Shown: positions 19,295 through 34,490 of the stretch, piece by piece
Layout: every line of letters starts with the position of its first letter
Numbering within the stretch: position 1 is the stretch's first letter
Translations under genes and position numbers: made by a program
The notes under the pieces: model-generated
Told to the model about the DNA's origin: nothing
What the model saw: the letters and a program-made list of their open reading frames with translations, nothing else
Databases searched by the model: none
NCBI RefSeq assembly: GCF_011045215.1
Contig: NZ_CP049201.1
Source of the DNA: Escherichia coli
GTDB taxonomy: Bacteria; Pseudomonadota; Gammaproteobacteria; Enterobacterales; Enterobacteriaceae
Strand: one strand, 5' to 3'
Length of the DNA: 64,000 nt

Positions 19295-19966
19295 ATGCAG
19301 TACCCGATTAACGAGATGTTCCAGACCCTGCAAGGTGAGGGTTACTTTACCGGCGTCCCCGCCATTTTTATTCGTTTACAGGGATGCCCGGTTGGCTGTG
19401 CCTGGTGCGACACCAAACACACCTGGGAAAAGCTTGAGGATCGGGAAGTCTCCCTTTTCAGCATTCTGGCGAAGACCAAAGAGAGTGATAAGTGGGGGGC
19501 GGCGAGCAGTGAAGATTTGCTGGCTGTCATTGGTCGCCAGGGATACACCGCGCGGCATGTGGTGATTACGGGTGGTGAGCCTTGCATTCATGATTTGCTA
19601 CCACTGACAGATCTGCTCGAAAAGAACGGTTTTAGCTGCCAGATCGAAACCAGTGGTACTCATGAGGTACGCTGCACACCGAATACCTGGGTTACCGTAT
19701 CACCAAAGCTGAACATGCGCGGCGGCTATGAAGTGTTGTCACAGGCACTGGAGCGAGCCAACGAAATCAAGCATCCAGTGGGACGCGTACGTGATATTGA
19801 AGCACTGGATGAACTTTTGGCGACGCTGACCGATGATAAACCGCGAGTCATTGCACTGCAGCCGATTAGCCAAAAGGATGATGCCACACGTTTGTGCATT
19901 GAAACCTGCATTGCGCGTAATTGGCGTTTGTCGATGCAAACCCATAAATATTTAAATATTGCCTGA
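19295..19966 (+). CDS. queE: 7-carboxy-7-deazaguanine synthase QueE (radical SAM)
   Basis: 223-aa ORF MQYPINEMFQTLQGEGYFTGVPAIFIRLQGCPVGCAWCDTK...; CxxxCxxC-type cluster. Confidence 0.92.
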   Translation: MQYPINEMFQTLQGEGYFTGVPAIFIRLQGCPVGCAWCDTKHTWEKLEDREVSLFSILAKTKESDKWGAASSEDLLAVIGRQGYTARHVVITGGEPCIHDLLPLTDLLEKNGFSCQIETSGTHEVRCTPNTWVTVSPKLNMRGGYEVLSQALERANEIKHPVGRVRDIEALDELLATLTDDKPRVIALQPISQKDDATRLCIETCIARNWRLSMQTHKYLNIA

Positions 19967-20304
19967 TTAAACATTTATAAGCGTTATAAATGGGTGGAAC
20001 CTGTAAAGACTTCTACTCATTTATATTCTTTGTCGTCTCTGAAAAACCTCCATTTTGCCCATCCTGAATTAATCATTATCATTCTCTACAAATTCTGTGG
20101 CGTTAATTTTTCGCTGGAGTGAAAATTATTGCGGTAAAGTTTGGTAGATTTTAGTTTGTATAGAGTTATTTTAAATATTTACCTTTTTAATCAATGGGTT
20201 AAGTGCTCTTTAACATGATGGATGTGTTTTTTGTGTGATACTGTAAAGTTGGTAGATTGTGACTGGCTTATAAAATCATTAATTAATAATAGGTTATGTT
20301 TAGA
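19967..20304 (+). promoter_or_regulatory. AT-rich CRISPR leader of the queE-proximal array
   Basis: Very AT-rich non-coding stretch immediately upstream of the first repeat; the degenerate repeat is at the far end of the array. Confidence 0.5.
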
Positions 20305-20577
20305 GAGTTCCCCGCGCCAGCGGGGATAAACCGTCGTCGAGAATCAGCACGAATGCCGCAACTGCGAGTTCCCCGCGCCAGCGGGGATAAACCGTGTGTA
20401 CGTCAGGCCCGTACCAGCATACCCCTGAGTTCCCCGCGCCAGCGGGGATAAACCGCCTACTCTCCTATTGCAGCAATTGCTGCGTCAGTGTTCCCCGCGC
20501 CAGCGGGGATAAACCGGGTACAAAAGAGGCCCCATTCTGGCAGGGCTCGAGTTCCCCGCGCCAGTGGGGATAAACCA
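20305..20577 (+). CRISPR. CRISPR array, type I-E repeats, 5 repeats / 4 spacers
   Basis: 29-bp repeat GAGTTCCCCGCGCCAGCGGGGATAAACCG at 20305, 20366, 20427, 20488 (GTG variant), 20549 (degenerate terminal). 32-bp spacers: tcgtcgagaatcagcacgaatgccgcaactgc; tgtgtacgtcaggcccgtaccagcatacccct; cctactctcctattgcagcaattgctgcgtca; ggtacaaaagaggccccattctggcagggctc. Confidence 0.97.
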
Positions 20578-21046
20578 CCATATAACCCGTTATCTCTTTC
20601 TCAAGTTTTTATATTAGCTGTACTTGTAATAAGCAACATATCCACGTAACACCTCATGTTCAAAATAGTTCCCCATGCTAGATAAGTTCACAATTATCGA
20701 TACAAAAAATTAAATTTAATCAAAGTGTTATTTGTATAATTCTTAAGCCGTTAAGAAATTTTAATCTATTATTTTTTTAATATTAATTAATGCCTGTTAA
20801 TTTTTTCTTTAGTATAACAGTGTATTTTTTAAGCTTGTTATTCATTGATTAAGTAATAAATCTGGAAATTTGTCTTTGTTTTGAGGCTAATGAGTGGTTT
20901 TACATAACCGCCTCTATACGCTGTTGATGAATAGTTCTTATGAATAAAGATATCCAGTTCATACTTTAAGTGAAAATTGATAAAGTGCGATTCGTATTGT
21001 CTTTTATTCTAAAGACATCGAGTGTAGTTAATATTCCTTGTAAAAA

Positions 21047-21168
21047 CAGGGATAAACCGAACTAGTTAAAGTTTTTATTATGTTCCCTGCATCAGCGGGG
21101 ATAAACCGGACTTGTTATCATTTTTTAAGTTGTCGAACTTATGTTCCCCGCGCCAGCGGGGATAACCA
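21047..21168 (+). CRISPR. degenerate CRISPR remnant (one partial and two mutated repeats)
   Basis: cagggataaaccg (21047-21059); atgttccctgcatcagcggggataaaccg (21080-21108); atgttccccgcgccagcggggataacca (21141-21168); one 32-bp and one 20-bp spacer-like segment; abuts the ygcE 3' end. Confidence 0.8.
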
Positions 21169-21214
21169 TTCAGGTATGTTCAGGCCGGGCAGTTTCCCGC
21201 CCGGTCTTCCTCAC

Positions 21215-22693
21215 TTACGCATTCGACCAGCTCTGGATCGAATCCGCATTTCCCAATTCCCCATGCATCACTTCATACGATTTTTTCAGAATCACATCAG
21301 TATGTTTGGTTAGGTCTTTGAAAATGCCTTTATTCATCGCGTCGTAGCGTTTGGCATTGCTCTCAATCGGTATAAAGATATCTTTCACGCGAACCATTTT
21401 ATCGACAGCCGTTGCGTAATCCGGGTATAGCCCCAGACCTACCGCGGTATTAATCGCTGCCCCCAGACTTGCACAACCGTTAATGGCGTTACGGCGTGCC
21501 GGAAGGTTGAACACGTCGGCAAAAATTTGCATAAACAGATCGCTGTTCGAACCGCCGCCAGTAATGATCACATGCTTTGCAAAGTGATTCATTTCATTAC
21601 ACATATTGTCGTAATTGTTCTTCAGCGTCAGCGCCACGCTTTCCAGTATCGAACGATATATCCATGCGTAATCCATGCTGGAATCAAAGCCGATCATAAT
21701 CCCACGTTTGTAGGGTTCCCACGGGTTGGTCAGCCAGTCCAGCACCGTCATCAGACCATTACAGCCAGGCGGCACACAAGAAGCTTTTTTGTTGAGCAAA
21801 TCTTCCGGTGAAAGATCCTGTGCTTTGGCATCCTGAATTAACGACTCGCCTAACATGTCGCGCAGCCAGCTCACCGTCCACATGCCTTTGCGAATACCGT
21901 AACCTTCATACAGCAATGTTTGCGGAATAGAAGACATAATCGGCCAGTACGCCACCGGATCTTTCGGCAAGGCTTTGCCATTCATCATCAGCGCGATATA
22001 AGTACCGAGTGAAATCACCGCCGTTTCATCATCCAGTAATCCGGCCCCCAGAGCTTCTACCGGTTTATCACTGGTGGTACAAACAACCGGCAGCCCTGCC
22101 GGGAAATGTGTCGCCAGCGCGGCTTGAGGTGTGATCTGTCCAAGAACAGTGCCTGGCATTTGCACATCAAACAGCATATGACGGGGGATATTAAACTTCT
22201 CCATGACTGCGGCATCTTCACTCCATGCCCAGCTCTTATAATCCACCGGCCACTGACCAAAATAGTTGGCGATATTGTCTTTAAACTCGCCGGTTAAGCG
22301 ATGCGTCAGATAACCCGAAAAAGAGGTGACATATGCCACGTCAGGATTAGTGTGTTCGTAGGGACGCGTTACGCGTGCATCCTGCCAGCTAATCAATGGC
22401 GCAGCTGGCGTGCCATCGGCTTTCAATAACGCACGGCAGCAACGGATGGATCCCAGACCAATACCGACAATATCTTCTTTATTCCCGGCAAACTGACTCA
22501 TCAAATCGTGACCGGCAAAACATAATGATGCCCATAAATCGTCGTCAGGATGTTCTGCAGTATCGGCATCTGGCGTGTGCATCGGCTGCAATAAGCCTTT
22601 ACCTTCGCAAACCACATTACCTTCCAGATCGTACATCACCACTTTTGTGCTCTGACTTCCGCCATCAATCCCTATGATGTATTTTTTCGACAT
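21215..22693 (-). CDS. ygcE: FGGY-family carbohydrate kinase
   Basis: 492-aa ORF with MSKKYIIGIDGGSQSTKVVMYD N-terminus typical of FGGY kinases. Confidence 0.85.
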   Translation of the reverse strand: MSKKYIIGIDGGSQSTKVVMYDLEGNVVCEGKGLLQPMHTPDADTAEHPDDDLWASLCFAGHDLMSQFAGNKEDIVGIGLGSIRCCRALLKADGTPAAPLISWQDARVTRPYEHTNPDVAYVTSFSGYLTHRLTGEFKDNIANYFGQWPVDYKSWAWSEDAAVMEKFNIPRHMLFDVQMPGTVLGQITPQAALATHFPAGLPVVCTTSDKPVEALGAGLLDDETAVISLGTYIALMMNGKALPKDPVAYWPIMSSIPQTLLYEGYGIRKGMWTVSWLRDMLGESLIQDAKAQDLSPEDLLNKKASCVPPGCNGLMTVLDWLTNPWEPYKRGIMIGFDSSMDYAWIYRSILESVALTLKNNYDNMCNEMNHFAKHVIITGGGSNSDLFMQIFADVFNLPARRNAINGCASLGAAINTAVGLGLYPDYATAVDKMVRVKDIFIPIESNAKRYDAMNKGIFKDLTKHTDVILKKSYEVMHGELGNADSIQSWSNA

Positions 22694-22719
22694 GATTTTT
22701 CTCCTGTAATTTTCCTGGC

Positions 22720-23997
22720 TTACTTGCTGCTAGCCATTGCGGGGGCGCTATCAGCAGTACGAATTTTTTGGAACAGCAAAAAGGTAAAGACAATCACCAT
22801 GGCAAGCGCCGCCATGCCCATCAGCCACATATTGCGGTAGGCTTCTGCTGCGGGCAGGGTGTCTTGCCAGTGGCCGATAATTGGGTAAACGAAGACATCC
22901 GGCAGGAATCCTATCACCGAACAAATACCTACCGTGGTGCCCATAATGTAAGACGGTGTTCTCGCTTCGCCAGGGCAGGCCCAGTACAGCCCGCGTGAGG
23001 CGTAACATGTGAATCCCAGCAGTAAAATCAGGCCAATCCCCATCGCGACCGATTGCGGGTTAGAGTTCGTGACGAGCAGGGCAGTTAACGCCAGCAGGCC
23101 GAGTACGGAAAGGATTTGGATCACGCGGGTAGGGGATTTCACTTTGCTGTAGGTGGTGATTATGCCGCCAAGTGGGCCGCACAGCGCGCGGAAGATTTTG
23201 TTGATCACAATCCCCATGTAGCTCGCCGCCACCAGCGACATGCCGTACATTTCGGTCAGATAGTTGGTGGAGTAACTCAGAATGGCGTAGATGGTGAAGA
23301 CACCAAAAATCACCATGCTGCAATACCAGGTGGTACTGATACGCAAAACGGCCAGGATATCGCTAAGCTGGAATGACTGTTTTTCTTCGTTATTGGCACT
23401 GCGCAGGTTGTTGTTATCGCTAACAAAAAACCAGCACAGAAGCCCCAACAAGATGTAAACCACACTGTAGATGATAATGACCGTTTTCAGGCTGGCGCTG
23501 TCATCCGGTGCAAAGCGAGAAAAGACCCACATGGTAAACACCGCCAGCGACATTACACCGACGCCGCGCAGCCCTTCCATCCAGCCCATAATTTTCCCTT
23601 GCTCGCTATGATCGCCAAGCAACGATGCGGCTTTAATCGACACCGACCACAGCATTAAAATCGTTGTTATCGCAAAGGCGACCTGAATACAGAGCATTAC
23701 CCACAGCGGTGGATACGTTGCCATTAACAGACCCAGTAATCCGGTAATGATCATCGCGGAAGTAATCATTTTGCGGTGTGAAAATTTATCGGCAATAACG
23801 CCGCTGGGGGCATAAAGAATAATAGCCGCAATACCAAAGGTACTCATTATTAAACCTATCTCGGTATTGCTGAATCCCATAAATTTCGCCATGGGAATTT
23901 GATAAATATAACGTAAATAAGCCAGGTCGAAACTAACGCCGCCGCTAAAACTAATTATCGCGAGGGTTATCCAACGGCGATATGAGTTGTGTTGCAT
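22720..23997 (-). CDS. yqcE: MFS transporter
   Basis: 425-aa multi-TM ORF; position between ygcE and ygcW. Confidence 0.85.
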   Translation of the reverse strand: MQHNSYRRWITLAIISFSGGVSFDLAYLRYIYQIPMAKFMGFSNTEIGLIMSTFGIAAIILYAPSGVIADKFSHRKMITSAMIITGLLGLLMATYPPLWVMLCIQVAFAITTILMLWSVSIKAASLLGDHSEQGKIMGWMEGLRGVGVMSLAVFTMWVFSRFAPDDSASLKTVIIIYSVVYILLGLLCWFFVSDNNNLRSANNEEKQSFQLSDILAVLRISTTWYCSMVIFGVFTIYAILSYSTNYLTEMYGMSLVAASYMGIVINKIFRALCGPLGGIITTYSKVKSPTRVIQILSVLGLLALTALLVTNSNPQSVAMGIGLILLLGFTCYASRGLYWACPGEARTPSYIMGTTVGICSVIGFLPDVFVYPIIGHWQDTLPAAEAYRNMWLMGMAALAMVIVFTFLLFQKIRTADSAPAMASSK

Positions 23998-24021
23998 ATC
24001 GTATTCCCATTTGTAATAGAC

Positions 24022-24069
24022 AAAAAAAAGAGAAAAGTAAGCCGCCCTTTCAGGTGGATTACTTTTCTC
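24022..24069 (-). terminator. leader hairpin plus U-run just upstream of the yqcE start (candidate attenuator)
   Basis: Minus-strand RNA reads GAGAAAAGUAA - 18-nt loop - UUACUUUUCUC - UUUUUUUU, ending about 25 nt before the yqcE ATG. Confidence 0.45.
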
Positions 24070-24172
24070 AGGTCTCTAGTAATTGAAATAATAAATAACA
24101 TGGAAAGCAGAGGTGTTGTGTGAGAGTAATCACGCTTCTGCTTTTTAAAACTATTTGATAATGCGAATATCA

Positions 24173-24194
24173 CACTGTGATTACGATCACATTA
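24173..24194. promoter_or_regulatory. CRP-binding site, perfect consensus core
   Basis: TGTGA-ttacga-TCACA at 24176-24191, central in the yqcE/ygcW divergent region. Confidence 0.6.
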
Positions 24195-24243
24195 GCAGTT
24201 ATGTCCTTATGCTAAAAATTATCTCCAGTTACCAGAGATAATG

Positions 24244-24292
24244 AGAAAGGTAACTTCCCTCTCGCGGGGGAAGTTACCTTTCTTTTTTTTTT
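24244..24292 (+). terminator. strong intrinsic terminator in the ygcW leader (candidate attenuator)
   Basis: 16-bp perfect stem agaaaggtaacttccc / gggaagttacctttct, 7-nt loop, 9-10 T run; ends 25 nt before the ygcW ATG; no upstream plus-strand gene to terminate. Confidence 0.6.
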
Positions 24293-24316
24293 GCCTTACG
24301 GAAATTGGAGCTAACT

Positions 24317-25102
24317 ATGTCAATCGAATCTCTCAATGCGTTCTCAATGGATTTTTTCTCCCTGAAAGGTAAAACCGCAATTGTTACCGGCGGGAATAGC
24401 GGTTTAGGCCAGGCATTTGCCATGGCGTTGGCCAAAGCAGGCGCAAATGTCTTTATTCCAAGTTTTGTCAAAGATAACGGCGAAACAAAGGAAATGATTG
24501 AAAAACAGGGTGTTGAGGTGGACTTCATGCAGGTGGATATCACCGCAGAAGGCGCGCCGCAGAAGATAATCGCCGCCTGTTGCGAACGTTTCGGTACCGT
24601 CGATATTCTGGTTAACAATGCCGGTATTTGTAAGCTGAATAAGGTGCTGGACTTCGGTCGTGCCGACTGGGACCCGATGATTGATGTGAACCTGACCGCC
24701 GCATTCGAGTTAAGCTATGAAGCGGCAAAAATTATGATCCCGCAGAAAAGCGGTAAAATCATTAATATCTGTTCATTATTCTCTTACTTAGGTGGACAAT
24801 GGTCACCTGCATATTCTGCCACTAAACATGCTCTTGCCGGATTCACCAAAGCTTATTGTGATGAACTAGGTCAATATAATATTCAGGTAAATGGTATTGC
24901 CCCTGGCTATTATGCAACAGATATTACGCTGGCGACACGCAGTAATCCAGAAACCAATCAGCGCGTTCTTGATCATATTCCAGCAAACCGTTGGGGCGAT
25001 ACTCAGGATTTAATGGGCGCAGCCGTATTCCTCGCAAGTCAGGCATCGAATTATGTCAACGGGCATTTATTAGTGGTCGATGGCGGTTATTTAGTGCGCT
25101 AA
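24317..25102 (+). CDS. ygcW: short-chain dehydrogenase/reductase
   Basis: ATG at 24317 (track's 24305 is TTG); TGGNSGLG Rossmann motif and YSATK catalytic motif. Confidence 0.85.
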   Translation: MSIESLNAFSMDFFSLKGKTAIVTGGNSGLGQAFAMALAKAGANVFIPSFVKDNGETKEMIEKQGVEVDFMQVDITAEGAPQKIIAACCERFGTVDILVNNAGICKLNKVLDFGRADWDPMIDVNLTAAFELSYEAAKIMIPQKSGKIINICSLFSYLGGQWSPAYSATKHALAGFTKAYCDELGQYNIQVNGIAPGYYATDITLATRSNPETNQRVLDHIPANRWGDTQDLMGAAVFLASQASNYVNGHLLVVDGGYLVR

Positions 25103-25171
25103 TCCATAACGGCGGTTTCTGTTTTCTCTTATTAATGATTATTCCATTTTTATTATCAGGAAGGAATTACT

Positions 25172-26626
25172 ATGTCTTTATCTCGCGCAGCGATTGTCGA
25201 CCAGCTAAAGGAAATTGTTGGTGCAGATCGCGTAATTACCGATGAAACAGTATTAAAGAAGAACAGTATTGACCGTTTTCGTAAATTTCCGGATATTCAT
25301 GGTATTTATACTTTGCCGATTCCGGCTGCGGTCGTAAAACTCGGTTCCACAGAACAAGTCTCCCGTGTGCTGAATTTTATGAATGCGCACAAAATTAACG
25401 GTGTGCCGCGTACCGGTGCTTCCGCCACCGAAGGTGGGCTGGAAACTGTTGTAGAAAACTCGGTGGTGCTCGACGGTTCCGCCATGAATCAAATCATTAA
25501 TATTGATATTGAGAATATGCAGGCGACGGCGCAATGTGGCGTTCCGCTGGAGGTGCTGGAAAACGCGTTGCGTGAAAAAGGTTACACCACGGGGCATTCT
25601 CCGCAGTCAAAGCCGCTGGCGCAGATGGGCGGCCTGGTAGCAACCCGCAGTATCGGGCAGTTCTCCACACTCTACGGCGCAATCGAAGATATGGTCGTTG
25701 GTCTGGAAGCCGTATTGGCTGATGGCACCGTCACACGTATTAAAAACGTGCCACGCCGCGCGGCTGGCCCGGACATTCGTCACATCATCATCGGCAACGA
25801 AGGTGCATTGTGCTATATCACTGAAGTAACAGTGAAAATCTTTAAATTCACCCCGGAAAACAACCTCTTCTACGGCTATATCCTGGAAGACATGAAAACC
25901 GGCTTCAACATCCTGCGTGAAATCATGGTGGAAGGGTATCGTCCGTCGATCGCTCGTTTGTATGACGCTGAAGATGGCACCCAACACTTCACCCATTTTG
26001 CCGACGGAAAATGCGTGCTGATCTTTATGGCTGAAGGTAACCCTCGCATTGCGAAGGCGACGGGCGAAGGGATTGCGGAAATCGTTGCCCGCTACCCGCA
26101 ATGCCAGCGCGTGGACAGCAAGCTGATCGAAACCTGGTTTAACAACCTGAACTGGGGACCGGATAAAGTGGCTGCCGAACGTGTGCAGATCCTCAAAACC
26201 GGCAACATGGGCTTTACTACCGAAGTGTCCGGCTGCTGGAGCTGCATCCACGAAATCTACGAAAGCGTTATTAACCGTATTCGTACCGAGTTCCCGCACG
26301 CCGACGACATCACTATGCTGGGCGGTCACTCCTCTCATAGCTATCAGAACGGCACCAACATGTACTTCGTCTACGACTACAACGTTGTCAACTGTAAGCC
26401 GGAAGAGGAAATCGACAAGTACCACAATCCGCTCAACAAAATCATTTGCGAAGAAACCATTCGCCTCGGTGGTTCGATGGTGCACCACCACGGTATCGGT
26501 AAACATCGCGTTCACTGGAGCAAGCTGGAACACGGCAGCGCGTGGGCGTTGCTGGAAGGGCTGAAAAAGCAGTTCGATCCTAACGGCATTATGAATACGG
26601 GTACTATCTATCCGATTGAAAAATAA
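25172..26626 (+). CDS. ygcU: FAD-linked oxidase (GlcD / alkyl-DHAP synthase-like)
   Basis: 484-aa ORF with FAD-binding PCMH-type N-domain (PRTGASATEGG). Confidence 0.85.
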   Translation: MSLSRAAIVDQLKEIVGADRVITDETVLKKNSIDRFRKFPDIHGIYTLPIPAAVVKLGSTEQVSRVLNFMNAHKINGVPRTGASATEGGLETVVENSVVLDGSAMNQIINIDIENMQATAQCGVPLEVLENALREKGYTTGHSPQSKPLAQMGGLVATRSIGQFSTLYGAIEDMVVGLEAVLADGTVTRIKNVPRRAAGPDIRHIIIGNEGALCYITEVTVKIFKFTPENNLFYGYILEDMKTGFNILREIMVEGYRPSIARLYDAEDGTQHFTHFADGKCVLIFMAEGNPRIAKATGEGIAEIVARYPQCQRVDSKLIETWFNNLNWGPDKVAAERVQILKTGNMGFTTEVSGCWSCIHEIYESVINRIRTEFPHADDITMLGGHSSHSYQNGTNMYFVYDYNVVNCKPEEEIDKYHNPLNKIICEETIRLGGSMVHHHGIGKHRVHWSKLEHGSAWALLEGLKKQFDPNGIMNTGTIYPIEK

Positions 26627-26719
26627 TGTGTCAGGCAGCGTTCCGCGATGATGGGGCGTTGCCTTTTCGGCTTCTCAGGCGAGAAGCCGTTCTTATTACC
26701 GGACAATGAAGGGGTAAAG

Positions 26720-28057
26720 ATGAACACTTCACCGGTGCGAATGGATGATTTACCGCTTAACCGTTTTCACTGTCGAATTGCTGCGCTCACTTTCGGCGCA
26801 CACCTGACCGACGGTTATGTTCTCGGCGTCATTGGTTACGCCATTATTCAACTTACGCCCGCCATGCAACTGACGCCGTTTATGGCGGGAATGATCGGCG
26901 GCTCGGCGCTCCTTGGTTTGTTTCTTGGCAGCCTGGTTCTTGGGTGGATCTCCGACCATATTGGTCGGCAAAAAATCTTCACCTTCAGCTTTTTGCTGAT
27001 TACGCTCGCTTCGTTCCTGCAATTTTTTGCCACCACGCCAGAGCATCTTATTGGACTGCGCATTTTGATCGGCATTGGTCTGGGAGGCGATTACTCAGTA
27101 GGTCACACCTTGCTGGCTGAATTTTCCCCGCGCCGCCATCGCGGTGTTTTGCTGGGCGCATTCAGCGTGGTGTGGACCGTAGGCTATGTGTTAGCAAGTA
27201 TTGCCGGACATCACTTTATTTCCGAAAACCCGGAGGCCTGGCGCTGGCTGCTGGCATCGGCAGCTCTGCCCGCGTTGTTGATTACGTTATTACGCTGGGG
27301 AACGCCAGAATCGCCACGCTGGCTACTGCGCCAGGGGCGTTTTGCAGAAGCTCACGCTATCGTGCATCGCTATTTTGGTCCCCATGTTTTACTGGGCGAT
27401 GAAGTGGAAACGGCGACCCATAAACACATCAAAACCTTGTTCTCTTCGCGCTACTGGCGGCGCACGGCGTTTAACAGCGTCTTCTTTGTCTGCCTCGTAA
27501 TCCCATGGTTTGTGATTTATACCTGGCTGCCAACTATCGCCCAGACTATTGGTCTGGAAGATGCGCTGACTGCCAGCCTGATGCTTAATGCGTTGTTAAT
27601 TGTGGGCGCGCTGCTGGGATTAGTTCTGACGCACCTGCTGGCACATCGCAAGTTTTTGCTGGGAAGTTTTTTGCTGCTGGCGGCAACGCTGGTAGTAATG
27701 GCCTGTTTGCCTTCCGGCAGTTCATTAACGCTGCTGCTTTTTGTTCTCTTCAGCACCACCATTTCGGCAGTCAGTAATCTGGTGGGCATTTTGCCTGCGG
27801 AAAGTTTTCCTACTGACATTCGCTCGCTGGGCGTCGGTTTTGCCACCGCCATGAGTCGACTTGGCGCGGCGGTAAGTACTGGCCTGCTGCCGTGGGTGCT
27901 GGCGCAGTGGGGAATGCAAGTTACCTTATTGATCCTGGCGGCAGTGTTGTTAGTTGGTTTTGTCGTGACCTGGCTATGGGCACCAGAAACCAAAGCACTC
28001 CCGCTGGTGGCGGCGGGAAATGTAGGAGGTGCGAATGAACATTCTGTTAGCGTTTAA
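26720..28057 (+). CDS. ygcS: MFS sugar-type transporter
   Basis: ATG at 26720 gives 445 aa; 12-TM profile; sugar-porter-like motifs. Confidence 0.85.
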   Translation: MNTSPVRMDDLPLNRFHCRIAALTFGAHLTDGYVLGVIGYAIIQLTPAMQLTPFMAGMIGGSALLGLFLGSLVLGWISDHIGRQKIFTFSFLLITLASFLQFFATTPEHLIGLRILIGIGLGGDYSVGHTLLAEFSPRRHRGVLLGAFSVVWTVGYVLASIAGHHFISENPEAWRWLLASAALPALLITLLRWGTPESPRWLLRQGRFAEAHAIVHRYFGPHVLLGDEVETATHKHIKTLFSSRYWRRTAFNSVFFVCLVIPWFVIYTWLPTIAQTIGLEDALTASLMLNALLIVGALLGLVLTHLLAHRKFLLGSFLLLAATLVVMACLPSGSSLTLLLFVLFSTTISAVSNLVGILPAESFPTDIRSLGVGFATAMSRLGAAVSTGLLPWVLAQWGMQVTLLILAAVLLVGFVVTWLWAPETKALPLVAAGNVGGANEHSVSV

Positions 28058-28814
28058 AGCCGAACCGGATGCCGGAATGCTGGCGGAAAAAGAGTGGCAG
28101 GCGGCGGCTCAGGGTAATAGCGGACCGGATGTTTCGCTACTGCGAAGTTTACTCGGTGCTGATGAACAGGCCGCTGCCGCGCTGCTGTTGGCGCAGAGAA
28201 AAAACGGTACGCCGATGTCTTTAACCGCGTTGAGCATGGGGGATGAACGGGCGTTGCACTGGCTGCGCTATCTCATGGCTCTTGGGTTTGAGGAAGCTGT
28301 ATTGCTGGAGACGGCGGCAGATCTGCGCTTTGCGCCGGAATTTGTCGCTCGCCATATTGCCGAATGGCAGCGTCAGAATCCGCTGGATCTGATAATTACT
28401 GGCTGCCAAAGCAGCGAAGGGCAGAATGGGCAAACGCCATTTTTGCTGGCGGAAATGCTGGGCTGGCCTTGCTTCACCCAGGTGGAGCGTTTCACTCTCG
28501 ACGCGCCGTTTATCACCCTCGAACAGCGTACTGAATATGGGCTGCGCTGTTGCCGGGTTCGCTTGCCTGCGGTGATTGCCGTGCGTCAGAGTGGTGAAGT
28601 GGCCTTGCCAGTACCGGGAATGCGCCAGCGAATGGCTGCGGGGAAAGCAGCCATTATCCGCAAAACTGTTGCTGTCGAATTGCCAGCGATGCAGTGTCTG
28701 CAACTGGCAAGAGCAGAGCAACGACGCGGAGCGACGCTGATTGATGGGCAAACGGTAGCAGAAAAAGCGCAAAAGCTATGGCAGGACTATTTACGCCAAA
28801 GGATGCAGCCATGA
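28035..28814 (+). CDS. ygcR: electron transfer flavoprotein beta-subunit-like protein
   Basis: ATG at 28035 (track's 28029 is GTG); 259 aa; overlaps the ygcS end and the ygcQ start. Confidence 0.8.
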   Translation: MNILLAFKAEPDAGMLAEKEWQAAAQGNSGPDVSLLRSLLGADEQAAAALLLAQRKNGTPMSLTALSMGDERALHWLRYLMALGFEEAVLLETAADLRFAPEFVARHIAEWQRQNPLDLIITGCQSSEGQNGQTPFLLAEMLGWPCFTQVERFTLDAPFITLEQRTEYGLRCCRVRLPAVIAVRQSGEVALPVPGMRQRMAAGKAAIIRKTVAVELPAMQCLQLARAEQRRGATLIDGQTVAEKAQKLWQDYLRQRMQP

Positions 28815-29671
28815 ATATCGCAATTGTGACAATAAATCAGGAGAATGCCGCAATAGCAAGCTGGCTGGCGGCGCAGGATTTCAGCGGTTGTACCCTGGCG
28901 CACTGGCAGATTGAACCTCAGCCCGTAGTGGCGGAACAGGTGCTGGATGCGCTGGTGGAACAGTGGCAGCGAACGCCTGCGGACGTTGTTCTCTTTCCGC
29001 CGGGAACGTTTGGCGATGAACTGTCGACCCGGCTGGCCTGGCGTTTACATGGTGCAAGCATCTGCCAGGTGACTTCGTTAGATATTCCAACCGTAAGCGT
29101 GCGCAAATCCCACTGGGGAAATGCGCTAACGGCGACGCTGCAAACAGAAAAACGCCCGCTATGCCTTTCCCTGGCGCGTCAGGCGGGAGCAGCGAAAAAC
29201 GCCACGTTGCCCTCTGGAATGCAACAACTGAACATTGTCCCGGGTGCGCTTCCGGACTGGCTGGTTAGCACAGAGGATCTGAAAAATGTTACTCGCGACC
29301 CATTAGCTGAGGCCAGACGGGTGCTGGTGGTGGGGCAGGGCGGAGAGGCAGATAACCAGGAAATCGCTATGCTGGCAGAAAAGCTGGGAGCCGAAGTGGG
29401 CTACAGTCGGGCGCGAGTGATGAACGGTGGCGTTGATGCTGAAAAAGTGATTGGTATTTCCGGACATCTGCTGGCACCTGAGGTGTGTATTGTTGTTGGC
29501 GCTTCTGGCGCAGCAGCGTTAATGGCGGGCGTACGCAATAGCAAGTTTGTGGTGGCGATTAATCATGACGCCAGCGCAGCGGTATTTTCACAGGCAGATG
29601 TTGGCGTGGTTGATGACTGGAAAGTGGTGCTGGAGGCACTGGTGACAAACATTGACGCAGAATGCCAATAA
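28811..29671 (+). CDS. ygcQ: electron transfer flavoprotein alpha-subunit-like protein
   Basis: ATG at 28811 gives 286 aa; C-terminal ETF-alpha FAD-binding region. Confidence 0.8.
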   Translation: MNIAIVTINQENAAIASWLAAQDFSGCTLAHWQIEPQPVVAEQVLDALVEQWQRTPADVVLFPPGTFGDELSTRLAWRLHGASICQVTSLDIPTVSVRKSHWGNALTATLQTEKRPLCLSLARQAGAAKNATLPSGMQQLNIVPGALPDWLVSTEDLKNVTRDPLAEARRVLVVGQGGEADNQEIAMLAEKLGAEVGYSRARVMNGGVDAEKVIGISGHLLAPEVCIVVGASGAAALMAGVRNSKFVVAINHDASAAVFSQADVGVVDDWKVVLEALVTNIDAECQ

Positions 29672-29714
29672 CGTGCTGCCGGATGATCCTGCCTACGGTT
29701 CTGGACTGGGGACC

Positions 29715-29783
29715 TGTAGGCCTGATAAGACGCGTCAAGCGTCGCATCAGGCGCTGAATGTCGGATGTGGCGTGCAGCCTACA
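29715..29783. repeat. REP pair (BIME-like) between convergent ygcQ and ygcP
   Basis: tgtaggcctgataagacgcgtcaagcgtcgcatcaggcg followed by an inverted partial copy ending gcagcctaca. Confidence 0.7.
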
Positions 29784-29817
29784 AATCACACAAATTCAAT
29801 TGGTTACGATTATCCCG

Positions 29818-30393
29818 TCAAAGCAATTTTTTCGCTAACGTCCAGACTCCGGTATTCGTGGTGGAAAGCGCCACGACACCCGCGTTAATCGCATTACGCG
29901 CATCTTCTTCATCGCATACCAGCCCGCCAGCAATCAGCGGTTGGCGGATTTTTTCCGTCACCCAGCCCAGCACTTTGGGCATGCAGCCTGGCAGGATCTC
30001 AATACAATCCGGATTCGATTGCGCAACTTGCTTATCAATGTTGTGAAACGAAATCGAATCAACAATAAACAGGCGATGAATACAGAAAAAACCTTCCGCT
30101 CTTGCCGCTTTCAACATTGAGGCTTTGGTACTGATAATGCCGTCCGCCTCGGTCACCAGTTTCAAAAACTGAATAACGACTTCTTTATTTGACGCGCCTT
30201 CCAGCAAATCAACATGAATAAAAGCATATTTCCCGGCGTTCTTAATCTTTTTAACGATATTACTGATGGTGCAGATATTGCCGTACAACACGGAAATAAA
30301 CTGGCATTCAGAATCGATTGCCAGTTGCAGGCTGGCATTATCTTTAACGGCAGCAATCACCGGATTCTGGCGGAGCAGGTGTAAGAGGGGCAT
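29818..30393 (-). CDS. ygcP: GlpP-family (glycerol-3-phosphate-responsive-type) antiterminator-like protein
   Basis: 191-aa ORF; position after ygcO in the ygcNOP operon; family assignment recalled from K-12 annotation. Confidence 0.75.
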   Translation of the reverse strand: MPLLHLLRQNPVIAAVKDNASLQLAIDSECQFISVLYGNICTISNIVKKIKNAGKYAFIHVDLLEGASNKEVVIQFLKLVTEADGIISTKASMLKAARAEGFFCIHRLFIVDSISFHNIDKQVAQSNPDCIEILPGCMPKVLGWVTEKIRQPLIAGGLVCDEEDARNAINAGVVALSTTNTGVWTLAKKLL

Positions 30394-30409
30394 AAATTAT
30401 CCTTATTAT

Positions 30410-30670
30410 TTATCCAAAGCGGTAGGTGATGCCGAATCCGGAAGGCGGATAGCGCCACTGTTGTAGTGTTGATTCGTCGCACAGCAAACGGCAGGTGCCA
30501 CACTCCAGGCAACTGCGATAGTCAATACGTAAGTCACCTTCCGGTGTGAGCGAAAAAAGACCTGCCGGACAGGCGTTAATCAACCGTTCTGCCGTCTGGC
30601 GCTCAACGGAGTCAGCCGGAACAATGTGCGGCGCATCAGCAACGCGCCAGAGATTACGGGCTACAGACAT
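30410..30670 (-). CDS. ygcO: ferredoxin-like protein (FixX-like)
   Basis: ATG at 30670 gives 86 aa; Cys cluster CLECGTCRLLCDES. Confidence 0.8.
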   Translation of the reverse strand: MSVARNLWRVADAPHIVPADSVERQTAERLINACPAGLFSLTPEGDLRIDYRSCLECGTCRLLCDESTLQQWRYPPSGFGITYRFG

Positions 30671-31932
30671 CGCAGACTCCTGATAACATCGCCCGCCAGA
30701 TGCCACAGGCCGTGACGACGTAAATGACGCCAGAATAACTGGCGCAGCGGTGGAACAGGTTTATCACCCTGATCCCATAAATCGCGGGAAATATCCTGCA
30801 TTAACGCAGGCCACGCCCGATACCAGCCAGGGCGTTGCAAAAGCGCCGGAACATGCTGATAACGTTGTAGAACATCCCACAGCAGGCTGCGCTCGACGTT
30901 GTGATGATAAAGCGCAAACAGATTTTGCGGCTCGCGGTGCTGGCAGGCGCTTATCAGCGTTTGTGCCGCCGCCTGTGCGCCAGTCAGCGCCATATCCATG
31001 CCGCGCACGGAAATTCCGGTATTGACGCAACTGCGTAACGCATCGCCCACCAGCAGCCAGCCGTTACCGGCGTATTGTACCGGCATACTGTGCAAGCCAC
31101 CTTCTGGCACCAGATGCGCACCATACTCCAGTGATTCCGTGTTTTTGATAAGCGGGCGAACTGCCGGATGCGTTTTAAAGCGAGCCAGCAGCTCGCTTGC
31201 CGGAACACGACTTTGCGTAAGGGAAGAGAGCGGGCAAACAATCCCTAACGAGAGCGTTTGTTGATTAGTATAAAGAAATGCGCCGCCGGGTAAGTCATCA
31301 CAGATCCCGCCGCTGAACAGCAACGCTGCGCCTTCGTTATTCTCCAGATGAAAACGTTCTTCAATAGCGGATGTTTCCAGCGACAGCACTTCTTTGATCC
31401 CCAACGCCATCGCTTCGCCAGCAGGACGAGTCACTAACCCGTGACGTTCAGCCAGGACGCTGTTGGCACCTTCTGCCAGCACCACATAACGGGCGCGGAG
31501 AATATCGTCACCACAAATGACACCACACACCCTGCCGTTTTCTTCATACAGTGCATCCACCGTCGCACCAGGGATGCATTCGACACCTTCTTTTTCGGCT
31601 TCGGCAACCAGCCACGGATCGAACCGTGCACGTAATACACTCCAGGATTCACCGCCGGGCTGTAAGCTGGAAAACGTCGTTGCGCCATTCGGCGTTAACA
31701 GGGAAAGGCTTTCGTGAGTGATGCGTCGTTCAAGAGGCGCGGTCAGATGAAATTGCGGGAGGAGTTCCGCGAGTGCATGGGTATATAACCGCCCGCCGGA
31801 AAGATTTTTGCTGCCGGGGATTTCAGCTCGTTCCAGTAACAAAACGGATAAACCCGCTCGCGCGCAGCGTAACGCGCAAGCGGTGCCTGCAATACCGGCA
31901 CCAATAATAATAATGTCGCAGTCGTCTTCCAT
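30661..31932 (-). CDS. ygcN: FAD-dependent oxidoreductase (FixC / ETF-QO-like)
   Basis: ATG at 31932 gives 423 aa; N-terminal DIIIIGAGIAG dinucleotide-binding motif. Confidence 0.85.
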   Translation of the reverse strand: MEDDCDIIIIGAGIAGTACALRCARAGLSVLLLERAEIPGSKNLSGGRLYTHALAELLPQFHLTAPLERRITHESLSLLTPNGATTFSSLQPGGESWSVLRARFDPWLVAEAEKEGVECIPGATVDALYEENGRVCGVICGDDILRARYVVLAEGANSVLAERHGLVTRPAGEAMALGIKEVLSLETSAIEERFHLENNEGAALLFSGGICDDLPGGAFLYTNQQTLSLGIVCPLSSLTQSRVPASELLARFKTHPAVRPLIKNTESLEYGAHLVPEGGLHSMPVQYAGNGWLLVGDALRSCVNTGISVRGMDMALTGAQAAAQTLISACQHREPQNLFALYHHNVERSLLWDVLQRYQHVPALLQRPGWYRAWPALMQDISRDLWDQGDKPVPPLRQLFWRHLRRHGLWHLAGDVIRSLRCL

Positions 31933-32009
31933 GTCATGCCCCAGATATCCTGAACACAACACCCTAACATAGCGTTACTTAAGGGAAATTGACCGCCGAC
32001 ACACTCTTA

Positions 32010-32375
32010 TCATTCGCCGCGATAGATACAACCAGCGGTGCAGGTTTCTTTTACCATCACCGCACTTAACAGCGGCACAACGGGTTTAACCTGATCCCAA
32101 ATCCATTTTGCTAAAACTTCGCTAGTTGGGTTTTCCAGACCTGGAATATCATTGAGATAATGGTGATCGAGGCGCTCATAAGTTGGCTTAAACGCCGCTT
32201 TTAGTTCAGCGAAATCGATAATCCAGCCCGTATGCGGATCGACTTCCCCGGTAATTTCCAGTCGCACCATAAAGGAATGCCCGTGCAGGCGACCACATTT
32301 ATGCCCTTCCGGGACGTGTGGTAAGCGGTGAGCGGCTTCGAAGGTGAAATCTTTAAATAACGTGGTGGACATCAT
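32010..32375 (-). CDS. queD: 6-carboxy-5,6,7,8-tetrahydropterin synthase QueD
   Basis: ATG at 32375 ([19 protein letters not shown]...) gives 121 aa; the track ORF carries a 28-codon upstream extension; Cx(5)HGH zinc motif. Confidence 0.9.
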
Positions 32376-32690
32376 AATTTCTCTACAGGACGATAAAACC
32401 GCCGTAGAGTACCGGAAAGGCTGTTTTTTCGCATTATCTAAAACGACTTTGTTGCGCACAATCGCTGATTTATCTTAATGATTGGCTAAATTCATTTGTT
32501 TTTCATTAGGTTGGTTAATCTATTTTGTTGTTAAAGACTATTGCTAAAACAGGTTAGTCGATTTGGTTATTAGTTATCGCTATCCCGTCTTTAATCCACA
32601 CCGTTCACCCCGTTAACCTTACCTTCTCTTCTGTTTTATGGGCGCTGACAGGGCGCAGAAACAGCTTTGCTTACTGGAACATAACGACGC

Positions 32691-34490
32691 ATGACGACAC
32701 AGGTCCCACCTTCCGCGTTGCTTCCGTTGAACCCGGAGCAACTGGCACGCCTTCAGGCGGCCACGACCGATTTAACTCCCACCCAGCTTGCCTGGGTTTC
32801 TGGCTATTTCTGGGGCGTGCTCAATCAGCAGCCTGCTGCGCTTGCAGCGACGCCAGCGCCAGCCGCAGAAATGCCGGGTATAACTATTATCTCCGCCTCG
32901 CAAACCGGCAATGCGCGCCGGGTTGCTGAAGCATTACGCGATGATTTATTGACGGCAAAACTGAACGTTAAGCTGGTGAACGCGGGCGACTATAAATTCA
33001 AACAAATCGCCAGCGAAAAACTGCTTATCGTGGTGACGTCAACGCAAGGAGAAGGGGAACCGCCGGAAGAAGCCGTCGCGCTGCATAAGTTCCTGTTCTC
33101 CAAAAAAGCGCCGAAGCTGGAAAACACCGCATTTGCCGTGTTTAGCCTCGGCGATAGCTCTTATGAATTTTTCTGTCAGTCCGGGAAAGATTTTGACAGC
33201 AAGCTGGCGGAACTGGGCGGTGAACGCCTGCTCGACCGTGTCGATGCCGACGTTGAATACCAGACCGCTGCCAGCGAGTGGCGCGCTCGCGTGGTTGATG
33301 CGCTTAAATCGCGTGCGCCTGTCGCGGCACCTTCGCAATCCGTCGCTACTGGCGTGGTAAATGAAATCCACACCAGCCCGTACAGCAAAGACTCGCCGCT
33401 GGTGGCGAGCCTCTCTGTTAACCAGAAAATTACCGGGCGTAACTCTGAAAAAGACGTTCGCCATATCGAAATTGACTTAGGTGACTCGGGCCTGCGTTAC
33501 CAGCCGGGTGACGCGCTGGGTGTCTGGTATCAGAACGATCCGGCACTGGTGAAAGAACTTGTCGAACTGCTGTGGCTGAAAGGCGATGAACCTGTCACCG
33601 TCGAGGGCAAAACGTTGCCTCTGAACGAAGCGCTACAGTGGCACTTCGAACTGACCGTCAACACCGCCAACATTGTTGAGAATTACGCCACGCTTACCCG
33701 CAGCGAAACACTGCTGCCGCTGGTGGGCGATAAAGCGAAGTTACAGCATTACGCCGCGACGACGCCGATTGTTGACATGGTGCGTTTCTCCCCGGCACAG
33801 CTTGATGCCGAAGCGCTAATTAATCTGCTGCGCCCGCTGACGCCGCGTCTCTATTCCATTGCCTCCTCGCAGGCGGAAGTCGAGAACGAAGTACACGTCA
33901 CCGTTGGTGTGGTGCGTTACGACGTGGAAGGCCGCGCCCGTGCCGGTGGTGCCTCCAGCTTCCTCGCTGACCGCGTGGAAGAAGAGGGCGAAGTCCGCGT
34001 ATTTATCGAACATAACGATAACTTCCGCCTACCAGCCAATCCAGAAACCCCGGTGATTATGATTGGCCCAGGCACCGGTATCGCGCCGTTCCGCGCCTTT
34101 ATGCAGCAACGTGCTGCCGATGAAGCACCGGGTAAAAACTGGCTGTTCTTTGGCAACCCGCATTTTACGGAAGATTTCCTCTACCAGGTGGAGTGGCAGC
34201 GCTACGTCAAAGAGGGCGTGCTGACACGTATCGATCTCGCCTGGTCGCGCGATCAAAAAGAAAAAGTTTACGTACAAGACAAACTACGCGAACAGGGCGC
34301 GGAGCTGTGGCGCTGGATCAATGACGGTGCCCACATTTATGTCTGCGGCGACGCTAATCGCATGGCGAAAGACGTTGAGCAGGCACTTCTGGAAGTGATT
34401 GCCGAATTTGGTGGCATGGACACCGAAGCGGCGGATGAATTTTTAAGTGAGCTGCGCGTAGAGCGCCGTTATCAGCGAGATGTCTACTAA
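32691..34490 (+). CDS. cysJ: sulfite reductase [NADPH] flavoprotein alpha component
   Basis: 599-aa ORF with flavodoxin-like and FAD/NADPH-binding domains; overlaps the cysI start. Confidence 0.95.

Follow-up and report, generated by a model that had tools for sequence, protein, structure and literature searches.

We analyzed a 64,000-nucleotide stretch of Escherichia coli DNA (the window; contig NZ_CP049201.1 of NCBI RefSeq assembly GCF_011045215.1), focusing on the ygc cluster, a block of ten genes at positions 21215-31932. Two of its operons, yqcE-ygcE and ygcW-ygcU-ygcS-ygcR-ygcQ, are read divergently from a 346-bp spacer between yqcE and ygcW. This spacer holds two leader elements, each composed of an intrinsic terminator and a candidate alternative hairpin, and the motif that they share appears to be previously undescribed. 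An earlier note on this DNA had named YgcP, a GlpP-family protein encoded within the cluster, but had missed its probable RNA targets, which are these two leaders.

Gene content of the ygc cluster

All ten genes named in the earlier note are intact as open reading frames (ORFs) inside the cluster. The same ten are annotated by RefSeq in the closest E. coli genome (98.7% identity over 10,718 bp), and the gene families to which they had been assigned are upheld by NCBIfam and Pfam. On the minus strand, yqcE (22720-23970; the longest possible ORF would start at 23997) encodes a major facilitator superfamily (MFS) transporter with weak NCBIfam matches to D-galactonate/PgtP-type carriers. It is followed by ygcE (21215-22693; called from the ORF and the RefSeq annotation), the second gene of the yqcE-ygcE operon, which encodes an FGGY-family kinase. 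The top NCBIfam matches of this kinase, XylB and LsrK, score far under their cut-offs, and its nearest entry in the Protein Data Bank (PDB) is the autoinducer-2 kinase 5ya0.

On the plus strand, ygcW (24317-25102) leads the second operon and encodes a short-chain dehydrogenase/reductase (SDR) resembling KduD and gluconate 5-dehydrogenase, enzymes that oxidize a secondary alcohol beside a primary one; its score against the KduD NCBIfam model is 350.7 bits, with a cut-off of 369. The next gene, ygcU (25172-26626), encodes a flavin adenine dinucleotide (FAD) enzyme of the alkyl-dihydroxyacetonephosphate synthase (ADPS) type, with FAD_binding_4 and FAD-oxidase_C domains. Then come ygcS (26648-28057), an MFS transporter that matches the AAHS, sugar-porter and organic-cation families and that tblastn searches of related loci found in Enterobacterales only, ygcR (28035-28814), which codes for a divergent electron-transfer flavoprotein (ETF) beta-like subunit (E 1e-11), and ygcQ (28811-29671), which codes for an ETF alpha-like subunit (PDB 1efv, 8e-23). 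Convergent with ygcQ, and again on the minus strand, are ygcP (29818-30393), encoding the PF04309 protein of the GlpP family that we propose as antiterminator for both leaders, ygcO (30410-30670), encoding a FixX-like ferredoxin, and ygcN (30661-31932), encoding a FixC-like ETF-quinone oxidoreductase (383 bits, cut-off 466). Homologues of EtfB, EtfA, FixC and FixX are thus all detected with NCBIfam, each below its curated cut-off, and YgcR and YgcQ are weak relatives of EtfB and EtfA.

None of the ten proteins reaches a curated NCBIfam equivalog cut-off. Because no functionally defined model is reached, no ygc protein can be assigned a substrate by homology. Likewise, the literature that we searched on the ygc genes held CRP-binding and promoter data and no functional study, in agreement with the earlier statement that the substrate is not established. 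Two apparent leads were rejected: a proteomics paper on quaternary amines in Citrobacter has cai/fix, not ygc, as its subject, and the 'ygcO' named in a review of the nitrogen-related phosphotransferase system (PTS-Ntr) is a misprint for ycgO. We also noted that ygcR has been listed as a mazEF-related 'death gene', its deletion giving higher survival after DNA damage (PMC2646832); this observation has no obvious tie to the catabolic role proposed below.

Two leaders with candidate alternative structures

Each leader is an element resembling a ribonucleic antiterminator (RAT) joined to an intrinsic terminator, and the conserved portion is about 68 nt long. The yqcE leader (24019-24085, minus strand) folds as a hairpin followed by a U-run, with the terminator stem at about 24030-24069 and a run of eight uridines at 24022-24029. 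The halves of an alternative stem, called P1, lie at 24078-24083 and 24058-24063. In the ygcW leader (24226-24295, plus strand), P1 is formed by 24228-24233 with 24249-24254, the terminator stem spans 24243-24284, and ten uridines follow at 24285-24294. A terminator scan gives this second hairpin 19 pairs, and its fold has a free energy of -42.9 kcal/mol (z -6.2). Each terminator is on the sense strand of the operon that it precedes, with a CRP site upstream of it and the start codon downstream. The two leaders share the pattern TTACYAGAGA-N2-3-TGAGAAARGTAA, which occurs exactly twice in the 64 kb, where chance would be expected to yield none.

We used 80 loci from species-representative genomes, anchored on the unusually conserved YgcU, and three more obtained by exact-protein look-up, with the cluster genes mapped by tblastn. 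A covariance model, R1, was made from 31 diverse leaders with the terminator as the sole structure encoded and P1 left out. Leaders carrying a 3-nt insertion were kept out of its seed alignment, and R1 afterwards aligned these correctly. In 1.56 Mb of sequence, R1 gives 118 full-length matches at E <= 5e-6, and leaders are present in 64 of the 83 loci. Elements upstream of ygcW were seen in Serratia, Pantoea, Photobacterium, Halobacillus, Geosporobacter, Dethiosulfatibacter, Sporomusa and Saccharopolyspora. Within the window, R1 recovers only the ygcW leader (76.2 bits, E 4.7e-15) and the yqcE leader (67.6 bits, E 5.6e-13), the weaker matches being the antisense sides of the same hairpins. A search of 19900-32800 against Rfam 15 returned no family matching the leaders at E up to 1, and RefSeq has nothing annotated under the leader DNA in 5066 E. 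coli genomes.

Several characteristics of the R1 alignment point to a second structure that competes with the terminator. First, P1, which pairs GUUACY with RGUAAC, is 98.5% paired and shows compensatory changes at five of its six pairs (for example, G-C 71 / A-U 35 and U-A 79 / C-G 24), along with the isolated variants GUCGC/GCGAC, UUGCC/GGCGA and CUACC/GGUAG. None of 500 shuffles equals the observed pairing, and sliding the partner by one to three columns reduces pairing to 16-62%. Second, the terminator is itself 91.5% paired, with compensatory changes at 12 of 17 pairs. Third, column 32 covaries both with column 8, in P1, and with column 86, in the terminator, as is fitting for two mutually exclusive structures, and the covariation of P1 with the terminator arm spans Proteobacteria, Bacillota and Actinomycetes. 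Fourth, the GAG and GAGAA elements of the P1 loop are invariant across 110 distinct leaders. P1 alone amounts to only -6.7 and -1.4 kcal/mol. Because this is weak against the -42.9 kcal/mol of the whole ygcW leader, a stabilizing factor, such as a protein, would be needed for P1 to prevail.

In one genome, that of Limnobaculum eriocheiris, the yqcE/ygcW spacer has apparently collapsed to a single bidirectional hairpin (locus L036, 3091-3156). This hairpin matches only positions 13-69 of the model, on both strands, indicating that the 5' half of P1 is missing. It could be a natural variant that is constitutively off or has been re-wired.

CRP sites in the yqcE/ygcW spacer

The spacer also carries two CRP sites. 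Site 1 (24176-24191; TGTGATTACGATCACA) is a perfect half-site palindrome with no mismatch, centered 42.5 nt upstream of the first base of the ygcW leader, and site 2 (24119-24134; TGTGAGAGTAATCACG) has one mismatch and is centered 41.5 nt upstream of the first base of the yqcE leader. Site 1 is occupied in chromatin immunoprecipitation sequencing (ChIP-seq) of enterotoxigenic E. coli (PMC4287617) and binds CRP in vitro with a Kd of about 1.7 nM (bioRxiv 10.64898/2026.01.16.700004), and a published classification counts yqcE-ygcE among the CRP-activated operons (PMC8085971). Among the enterobacterial loci, a CRP-like site is centered 40.5-43.5 nt upstream of the first base of the motif in 84 instances, a spacing that would fit class II CRP promoters with transcription starting at the motif. 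CRP sites are lacking in the Gram-positive loci. The idea that the cluster is a catabolic uptake module is supported; the module is a catabolite-controlled one, with a perfect CRP site bound both in ChIP-seq and in vitro. The same spacer has been flagged as H-NS bound and as carrying constitutive RpoD promoters (PMC3946193).

YgcP as the probable reader of both leaders

Residues 12-184 of YgcP span the full PF04309 (G3P_antiterm) model at 1.6e-62, and the protein matches PDB entry 3kts at 1.2e-27. YgcP belongs to a separate subfamily, being 53-61% identical to the YgcP proteins of Firmicute ygc-type clusters and only 31% identical to the GlpP of a Priestia glpP-glpF-glpK-glpD locus. Given this low identity to the Bacillaceae protein, it is likely that YgcP responds to a ligand other than glycerol-3-phosphate.

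The leader motif tracks the presence of ygcP. Both are found in 59 of the 83 loci and neither in 18, the latter including loci of Desulfobacterales, SAR324 and Alkalihalobacillus, which have other regulators such as GntR-type proteins or sigma-54 activators. Of the five loci with the motif but no ygcP, four are truncated contigs and one comes from a Serratia genome that carries ygcP on a different contig. The sole ygcP locus that has no strong motif (L083) still contains a full-length match of 30.7 bits. Furthermore, the motif lies before ygcW (57 cases), yqcE (44), genes for betaine/choline/carnitine transporter (BCCT) family carriers (6), ygcU (4) and MFS genes (2), all of which are the first genes of pathway operons. 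Taken together, these distributions suggest that YgcP probably reads both leaders as an antiterminator.

The best precedent is GlpP of Bacillus subtilis, which together with glycerol-3-phosphate overrides the terminators of the glpD, glpFK and glpTQ leaders (PMC9604022, PMC10573289). We compared the ygc elements with the B. subtilis glpD 5' untranslated region (UTR; PMC9604022, Table S4) and with the glpF and glpD leaders of Priestia and Lysinibacillus. The two systems have the PF04309 regulator family in common, place an intrinsic terminator in the 5' UTR of every target operon, and are subject to catabolite control on top, through CcpA in Bacillus and CRP for ygc. The glp leaders also contain a short 5' segment (GGUC, UGGU, GGU or GUGGUU) that can pair with the start of the 5' arm of the terminator. 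As judged by eye, this P1-type pairing encloses a purine-rich loop with two GAG(A)-type repeats, as it does in ygc; the glp loops read UGAGAUGAGGAGA, GGAGAAUCGGAGAG or UGAGUAACUGAGAG, and the ygc loop reads CAGAGAUAAUGAGAAAG. The ygc leaders differ in having a distinct consensus and in preceding genes other than glp genes, their ligand is presumably not glycerol-3-phosphate, and they occur in Gram-negative enterics, where two divergent leaders occupy one spacer. The ygc system therefore would work like GlpP antitermination and use a member of the same protein family, with an RNA consensus of its own. We also observed a conserved AAGTTAATA box just upstream of the 5' half of P1 in Bacillaceae glp leaders (L085, 8600-8620 and 11178-11190; L086, 6174-6185; also in the B. 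subtilis glpD UTR) that has no counterpart in the ygc leaders.

A more distant resemblance is to the RATs of BglG, SacY and LicT, in which the antiterminator hairpin is weak, overlaps the terminator's 5' arm and is stabilized by a protein under the control of a signal or ligand. The CAT/PRD proteins of those systems are unrelated to PF04309, however, their RNA motif differs, and YgcP carries no PTS regulation domains.

Conserved core and optional electron-transfer genes

Across phyla, ygcW (64-98% identity), ygcU (64-75% identical between phyla), ygcE (43-99%) and usually ygcP form the core of the cluster, and no other catabolic enzyme recurs across the loci. The ETF pair, which directly follows ygcU wherever it is present, is absent from Halobacillus, Thalassobacillus, Virgibacillus, Saccharopolyspora, Prauserella, Alkalihalobacillus, SAR324 and Pantoea/Erwinia-type loci, and FixC and FixX are found in Enterobacterales only. 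Thus, the ETF/FixCX electron chain emphasized in the earlier note does have its genes in the E. coli cluster, but both modules are optional and fall outside the conserved core.

The combination of an ETF-like heterodimer and a FixC/FixX-type oxidoreductase attached to a specific flavoenzyme recalls the FixABCX, cai (carnitine) and YdiQRST systems of E. coli. A quaternary amine and a BCCT carrier belong to the cai system, as they may to relatives of the ygc cluster. The LctBCD lactate dehydrogenase-Etf complex offers another parallel, in that LctD is a detectable relative of YgcU. In contrast to these systems, the flavoenzyme partner in ygc is ADPS-like and is neither an acyl-CoA dehydrogenase nor a GlcD-type dehydrogenase, and the ygc ETF module is dispensable across lineages and is accompanied by no genes for a CoA-transferase or CoA-ligase.

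Additional observations were made in individual loci. Several clusters of anaerobes and vibrios (L004, 13187-16591; L063, 13246-16793; L064; L069) encode an extra oxidase, of the GlcD type and bearing an (S/T)EHGVG motif, which in some cases has an additional ETF pair of its own. The second alpha subunit in L004 has a faint match to a ferredoxin domain (Fer4_7), which recalls LctBCD. In three unrelated lineages, a YghZ/YdjG-type aldo-keto reductase resembling L-glyceraldehyde-3-phosphate or methylglyoxal reductase adjoins the cluster (L048, 1399-2962; L050, 5033-6100; L051, 19175-20197), and this enzyme may handle a reactive triose or 2-oxoaldehyde product. Finally, in two contigs assigned to organisms that are not enterics, the YgcU of a Planctomycetota metagenome-assembled genome (L005) is 100% identical to that of E. 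coli, and that of Chryseobacterium sp. 18061 (L028), which has the full enterobacterial gene order with queD-cysJ, is 88% identical; such near-E. coli sequences look like contamination or mis-binning of public assemblies.

YgcU carries the catalytic signature of ADPS

The closest solved relatives of YgcU are ADPS (PDB 4bby; 2e-40), followed by glycolate oxidase (4.5e-26) and LctD (7qh2; 4e-22). The FAD_binding_4 and FAD-oxidase_C architecture of ADPS (also known as AGPS; 4bby, 2uuu) is the same in YgcU. Moreover, YgcU residues R262, Y398 and H438-440 align with Arg419, Tyr578 and His615-617 of ADPS, whose catalytic residues we identified through the R419H and Y578F mutant entries. Across 10 diverse orthologues these YgcU residues do not vary, and all 34 family members examined have the HHH motif. 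At the HHH position, the co-located second oxidase has (S/T/A)EH, and the solved non-ADPS relative 3pm9 has AEH. The earlier description of YgcU as a FAD oxidase needs revision, as YgcU is no generic GlcD-type oxidase and keeps the Arg, Tyr and HHH signature of ADPS. An AlphaFold2 model of YgcU made from the 10-sequence alignment (mean predicted local distance difference test score 63.9, with active-site segments below 50) was too weak for use.

In ADPS, the oxidized flavin traps the C1 carbanion of acyl-dihydroxyacetone phosphate (acyl-DHAP) and exchanges the C1 substituent, so that the enzyme makes and breaks C1-O bonds on DHAP. The setting of YgcU differs from this precedent. It is encoded alongside a kinase, an SDR and transporters in a catabolic operon, often with a dedicated ETF pair behind its gene, and its proposed substrate would be a small soluble compound, not a lipid.

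Neighbors in other bacteria and the nature of the substrate

The genes that accompany the core in other organisms offer clues to the substrate. Outside Enterobacterales, the transporters are BCCT carriers and ATP-binding cassette (ABC) systems of the OpuC/OsmF type. The best matches of the BCCT carriers are to glycine-betaine, carnitine and choline types, all under cut-offs. Photobacterium has a BCCT carrier and also a 58%-identical YqcE orthologue, the latter behind a leader motif. Five anaerobic loci encode non-pyrrolysine MttB-family methyltransferases, one of them together with an MtgC-like corrinoid protein and a methyltetrahydrofolate:corrinoid methyltransferase. A Pantoea/Enterobacter-type locus includes a homologue of formaldehyde-activating enzyme (Fae) that exceeds its cut-off, and an Alkalihalobacillus locus includes an enzyme resembling class III alcohol dehydrogenase/formaldehyde dehydrogenase and another resembling betaine aldehyde dehydrogenase (BADH).

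These BCCT/OpuC, MttB and formaldehyde-enzyme neighbors suggest that the substrate in those organisms is an N-methylated onium compound, and they point away from an ordinary sugar. In halophiles, vibrios and anaerobes, gene neighborhoods make a quaternary ammonium group, or a moiety bearing one, the most probable identity of the leaving group of the substrate, here called X. For the sugar or polyol undergoing flavin-dependent oxidation that the earlier note had favored, the assignment to uptake and catabolism thus survives, but the neighbors found elsewhere speak against the sugar itself. A quaternary-ammonium substrate in E. coli is a weaker proposition, and we regard it as unlikely, if well worth keeping in mind. 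Carnitine and glycerophosphocholine may be considered as candidate substrates. We also considered 2,3-dihydroxypropane-1-sulfonate (DHPS) as the E. coli substrate, on account of the ACS-type MFS carrier and because sulfite leaves readily. DHPS was judged unlikely because, to our knowledge, K-12 strains excrete the compound and do not re-use it.

Genomic setting

The cluster is flanked by queE (19295-19966) on one side and by queD (32010-32372) and cysJ on the other. A type I-E CRISPR array lies between queE and ygcE, as the earlier note had indicated. It comprises five intact repeats and four spacers at about 20307-20577 behind an AT-rich leader, and three degenerate repeats are found some 500 bp past the intact array, at about 21040-21170. 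In other Enterobacteriaceae loci, the position between queE and ygcE is taken up by a short spacer only.

Other parts of the earlier account of the locus need revision. The cluster had been described as bounded by REP (repetitive extragenic palindromic) elements, but the sole REP-like or BIME-like (bacterial interspersed mosaic element) palindromes are internal to the cluster, between the convergent genes ygcQ and ygcP (about 29680-29785), with a weak match to naRNA4 (29.4 bits) that is under the gathering score. There is no REP in the 77-bp gap between ygcN and queD, and the ygcE end of the cluster has only a plain hairpin. Similarly, an accessory origin is not supported. Of 5426 complete E. 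coli genomes, 5060 (93%) carry at least 80% of the cluster, its GC content of 0.43-0.57 is unremarkable, and every Enterobacteriaceae locus fetched (Escherichia, Citrobacter, Klebsiella, Enterobacter, Pluralibacter, Yokenella, Cedecea and others) has it in the slot between queE and queD-cysJ. About 360 of the 5426 genomes have neither the regulatory spacer nor most of the cluster, and truncated YgcP entries from Shigella flexneri and S. boydii are found among the homologues, which together suggests lineage-specific loss.

We also noted that the 77 bp from the queD stop to the ygcN start (31933-32009), where both genes are on the same strand, contain neither a leader motif nor a convincing promoter. 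As a result, ygcN-ygcO-ygcP may be transcribed in part by read-through from queD, which may provide a constitutive low level of YgcP.

Proposed mechanism

We propose that CRP together with YgcP antitermination controls the catabolism of a diol that bears a leaving group, possibly a quaternary ammonium group, and we put the probability of this overall explanation, which draws on sequence comparisons, at about 0.5. Its parts differ in strength. The control model, wherein CRP-driven transcripts with terminator leaders would keep the cluster silent until YgcP senses its ligand, is one that we hold with considerable confidence. Two divergent class II CRP-dependent promoters would fire into yqcE-ygcE and ygcW-ygcU-ygcS-ygcR-ygcQ, and by default each leader would fold as a strong intrinsic terminator before the first codon. 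When loaded with a phosphorylated intermediate of the pathway, YgcP would bind the nascent P1 hairpin, GUUAC(Y)-[..GAG..GAGAA..]-(R)GUAAC. Because P1 would sequester the start of the 5' arm of the terminator, RNA polymerase would then read through.

The chemical part of the explanation carries moderate to low confidence. The substrate would be a small vicinal-diol compound, X-CH2-CHOH-CH2OH, whose secondary alcohol YgcW would oxidize to a ketone. YgcE would phosphorylate the primary alcohol, as FGGY kinases do with the primary hydroxyl group in polyols and ketoses, to give a C1-substituted analogue of dihydroxyacetone phosphate. YgcU, by ADPS-like chemistry at flavin N5, would remove X to yield a triose phosphate, and YgcRQ and YgcNO, where present, would link the YgcU flavin to the quinone pool. 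This three-step scheme would be the simplest that uses exactly the activities of YgcW, YgcE and YgcU. That an ADPS-type reaction takes place on a phosphorylated keto-intermediate is a possibility to which we assign somewhat less than an even chance.

Several points weigh against this explanation. YgcP-RNA binding and regulated read-through are predictions from sequence. The leader hidden Markov model (nhmmer) finds no match in the B. subtilis glpD UTR, and R1 gives the Priestia glpD leader just 15.3 bits (E 0.076) and the Lysinibacillus glpD leader 9.9 bits. Given these results, we regard the kinship with the GlpP target as architectural and claim no homology. YgcU, at 484 amino acids compared to 584-658, is without the N-terminal region of about 130-210 residues found in ADPS, and its alignments begin at residue 138 of the Dictyostelium enzyme or 215 of the mammalian one. 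The ETF genes directly after ygcU suggest that YgcU may perform net redox chemistry, unlike ADPS. We are guessing at the sequence of the three steps, at what X is and at how the YgcU reaction is balanced in redox terms. With regard to the substrate, some of the MttB-like neighbors may belong to adjacent modules of the proline-betaine type, and the E. coli cluster includes no BCCT, MttB or formaldehyde genes, its only carriers being of the MFS. The proposal of a quaternary amine may therefore not transfer to E. coli, where it depends on the high identity of YgcW and YgcU to their orthologues.

Alternative explanations

The most serious competitor is the model of the earlier note, which we consider possible though less probable than the explanation given above. 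In it, YgcE would phosphorylate a sugar or polyol, and YgcU would be a conventional FAD dehydrogenase, analogous to glycerol-3-phosphate dehydrogenase or to LctD/Etf, that passes electrons through YgcRQ and YgcNO to quinone, with YgcW adding an NAD-linked step. The gene families are all as that model states, FixC and FixX do accompany the cluster in Enterobacterales, LctD of the LctBCD-Etf complex is related to YgcU (7qh2, 4e-22), and an ETF of the ygcRQ type stands right after ygcU in E. coli, Photobacterium, Sporomusa, Desulfobacterales and Clostridia. However, about one third of the lineages in which YgcW, YgcU and YgcE are retained at 64-80% identity have no ETF pair, and FixCX is confined to Enterobacterales. 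YgcU has the HHH, Tyr and Arg of ADPS and not the (S/T/A)EH of the second oxidase and 3pm9, its nearest solved relative is ADPS by a margin of 2e-40 to 4.5e-26 for glycolate oxidase, and the neighboring transporters and methyl-group enzymes indicate onium compounds.

An improbable second alternative is a conjugate of glycerol as substrate, with a quaternary-amine alcohol, acid or phosphoester departing as the leaving group; glyceryl ethers (betaine-lipid head groups after deacylation, for instance) and glycerophosphocholine would be examples. YgcW, YgcE and YgcU would then free DHAP along with a derivative of betaine or choline, to be processed by the neighboring MttB, BADH or formaldehyde enzymes, and YgcP might sense an intermediate resembling glycerol-3-phosphate. 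The ADPS catalytic residues kept by YgcU and the C1-O chemistry of ADPS on DHAP agree with such a scheme, an ether bond would account for chemistry this elaborate, BCCT/OpuC transporters and BADH-like and MttB-like enzymes are nearby, and the regulator comes from a glycerol-3-phosphate-sensing family. Yet this alternative proceeds by analogy alone. There is no lipase, phosphodiesterase or betaine-specific enzyme that turns up consistently from locus to locus, and the E. coli cluster has no downstream enzymes for a freed betaine. Moreover, glycerophosphocholine is normally cleaved by simple phosphodiesterases.

Lastly, it is very improbable that the leaders are ordinary bidirectional terminators or insulators, or that the cluster is cryptic in E. 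coli, with no control by YgcP and with upstream conservation reflecting promoter constraint; both hairpins do lie between A-runs and T-runs with weak antisense scores, the spacer is H-NS bound with constitutive RpoD promoters (PMC3946193), and neither a growth phenotype nor an inducer was found in the literature searched, but the hairpins are placed between CRP sites and start codons on the sense strand of each operon, P1 and the terminator covary across phyla with differing promoters, including Gram-positive loci without CRP sites, and the motif tracks the presence of ygcP.

Implications

The ygc genes are among the larger blocks of unknown function in E. coli and are present in 93% of its complete genomes. 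The leaders, each about 70 nt, and their candidate regulator offer a compact reporter handle, which makes the question of the substrate experimentally approachable. Of the components discussed here, GlpP antitermination and ADPS-type flavoenzymes are of known kinds. If the antitermination model is true, GlpP-type riboregulation would extend from the glycerol genes of Firmicutes to Gram-negative enterics, vibrios and actinomycetes, and an RNA family would be added that Rfam lacks.

If the proposed chemistry is likewise true, it would represent a catabolic use of ADPS-type flavin chemistry and could bear on the turnover of quaternary amines by bacteria in gut, marine and hypersaline habitats. 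In its most far-reaching form, which we offer as a tentative suggestion that is more likely to be wrong than right, YgcW, YgcE and YgcU would constitute an unrecognized three-step route from a quaternary-ammonium compound carrying a hydroxyl group (or from some other onium or sulfonate compound) to triose phosphate, by means of a catabolic ADPS-like flavoenzyme that cleaves a bond alpha to a ketone, and this route would be switched on by a RAT of a new, phylum-spanning class that is read by YgcP. Such a route for an onium compound, if true, would give E. coli and the other Enterobacteriaceae of the gut a new way of producing or consuming methylamines.

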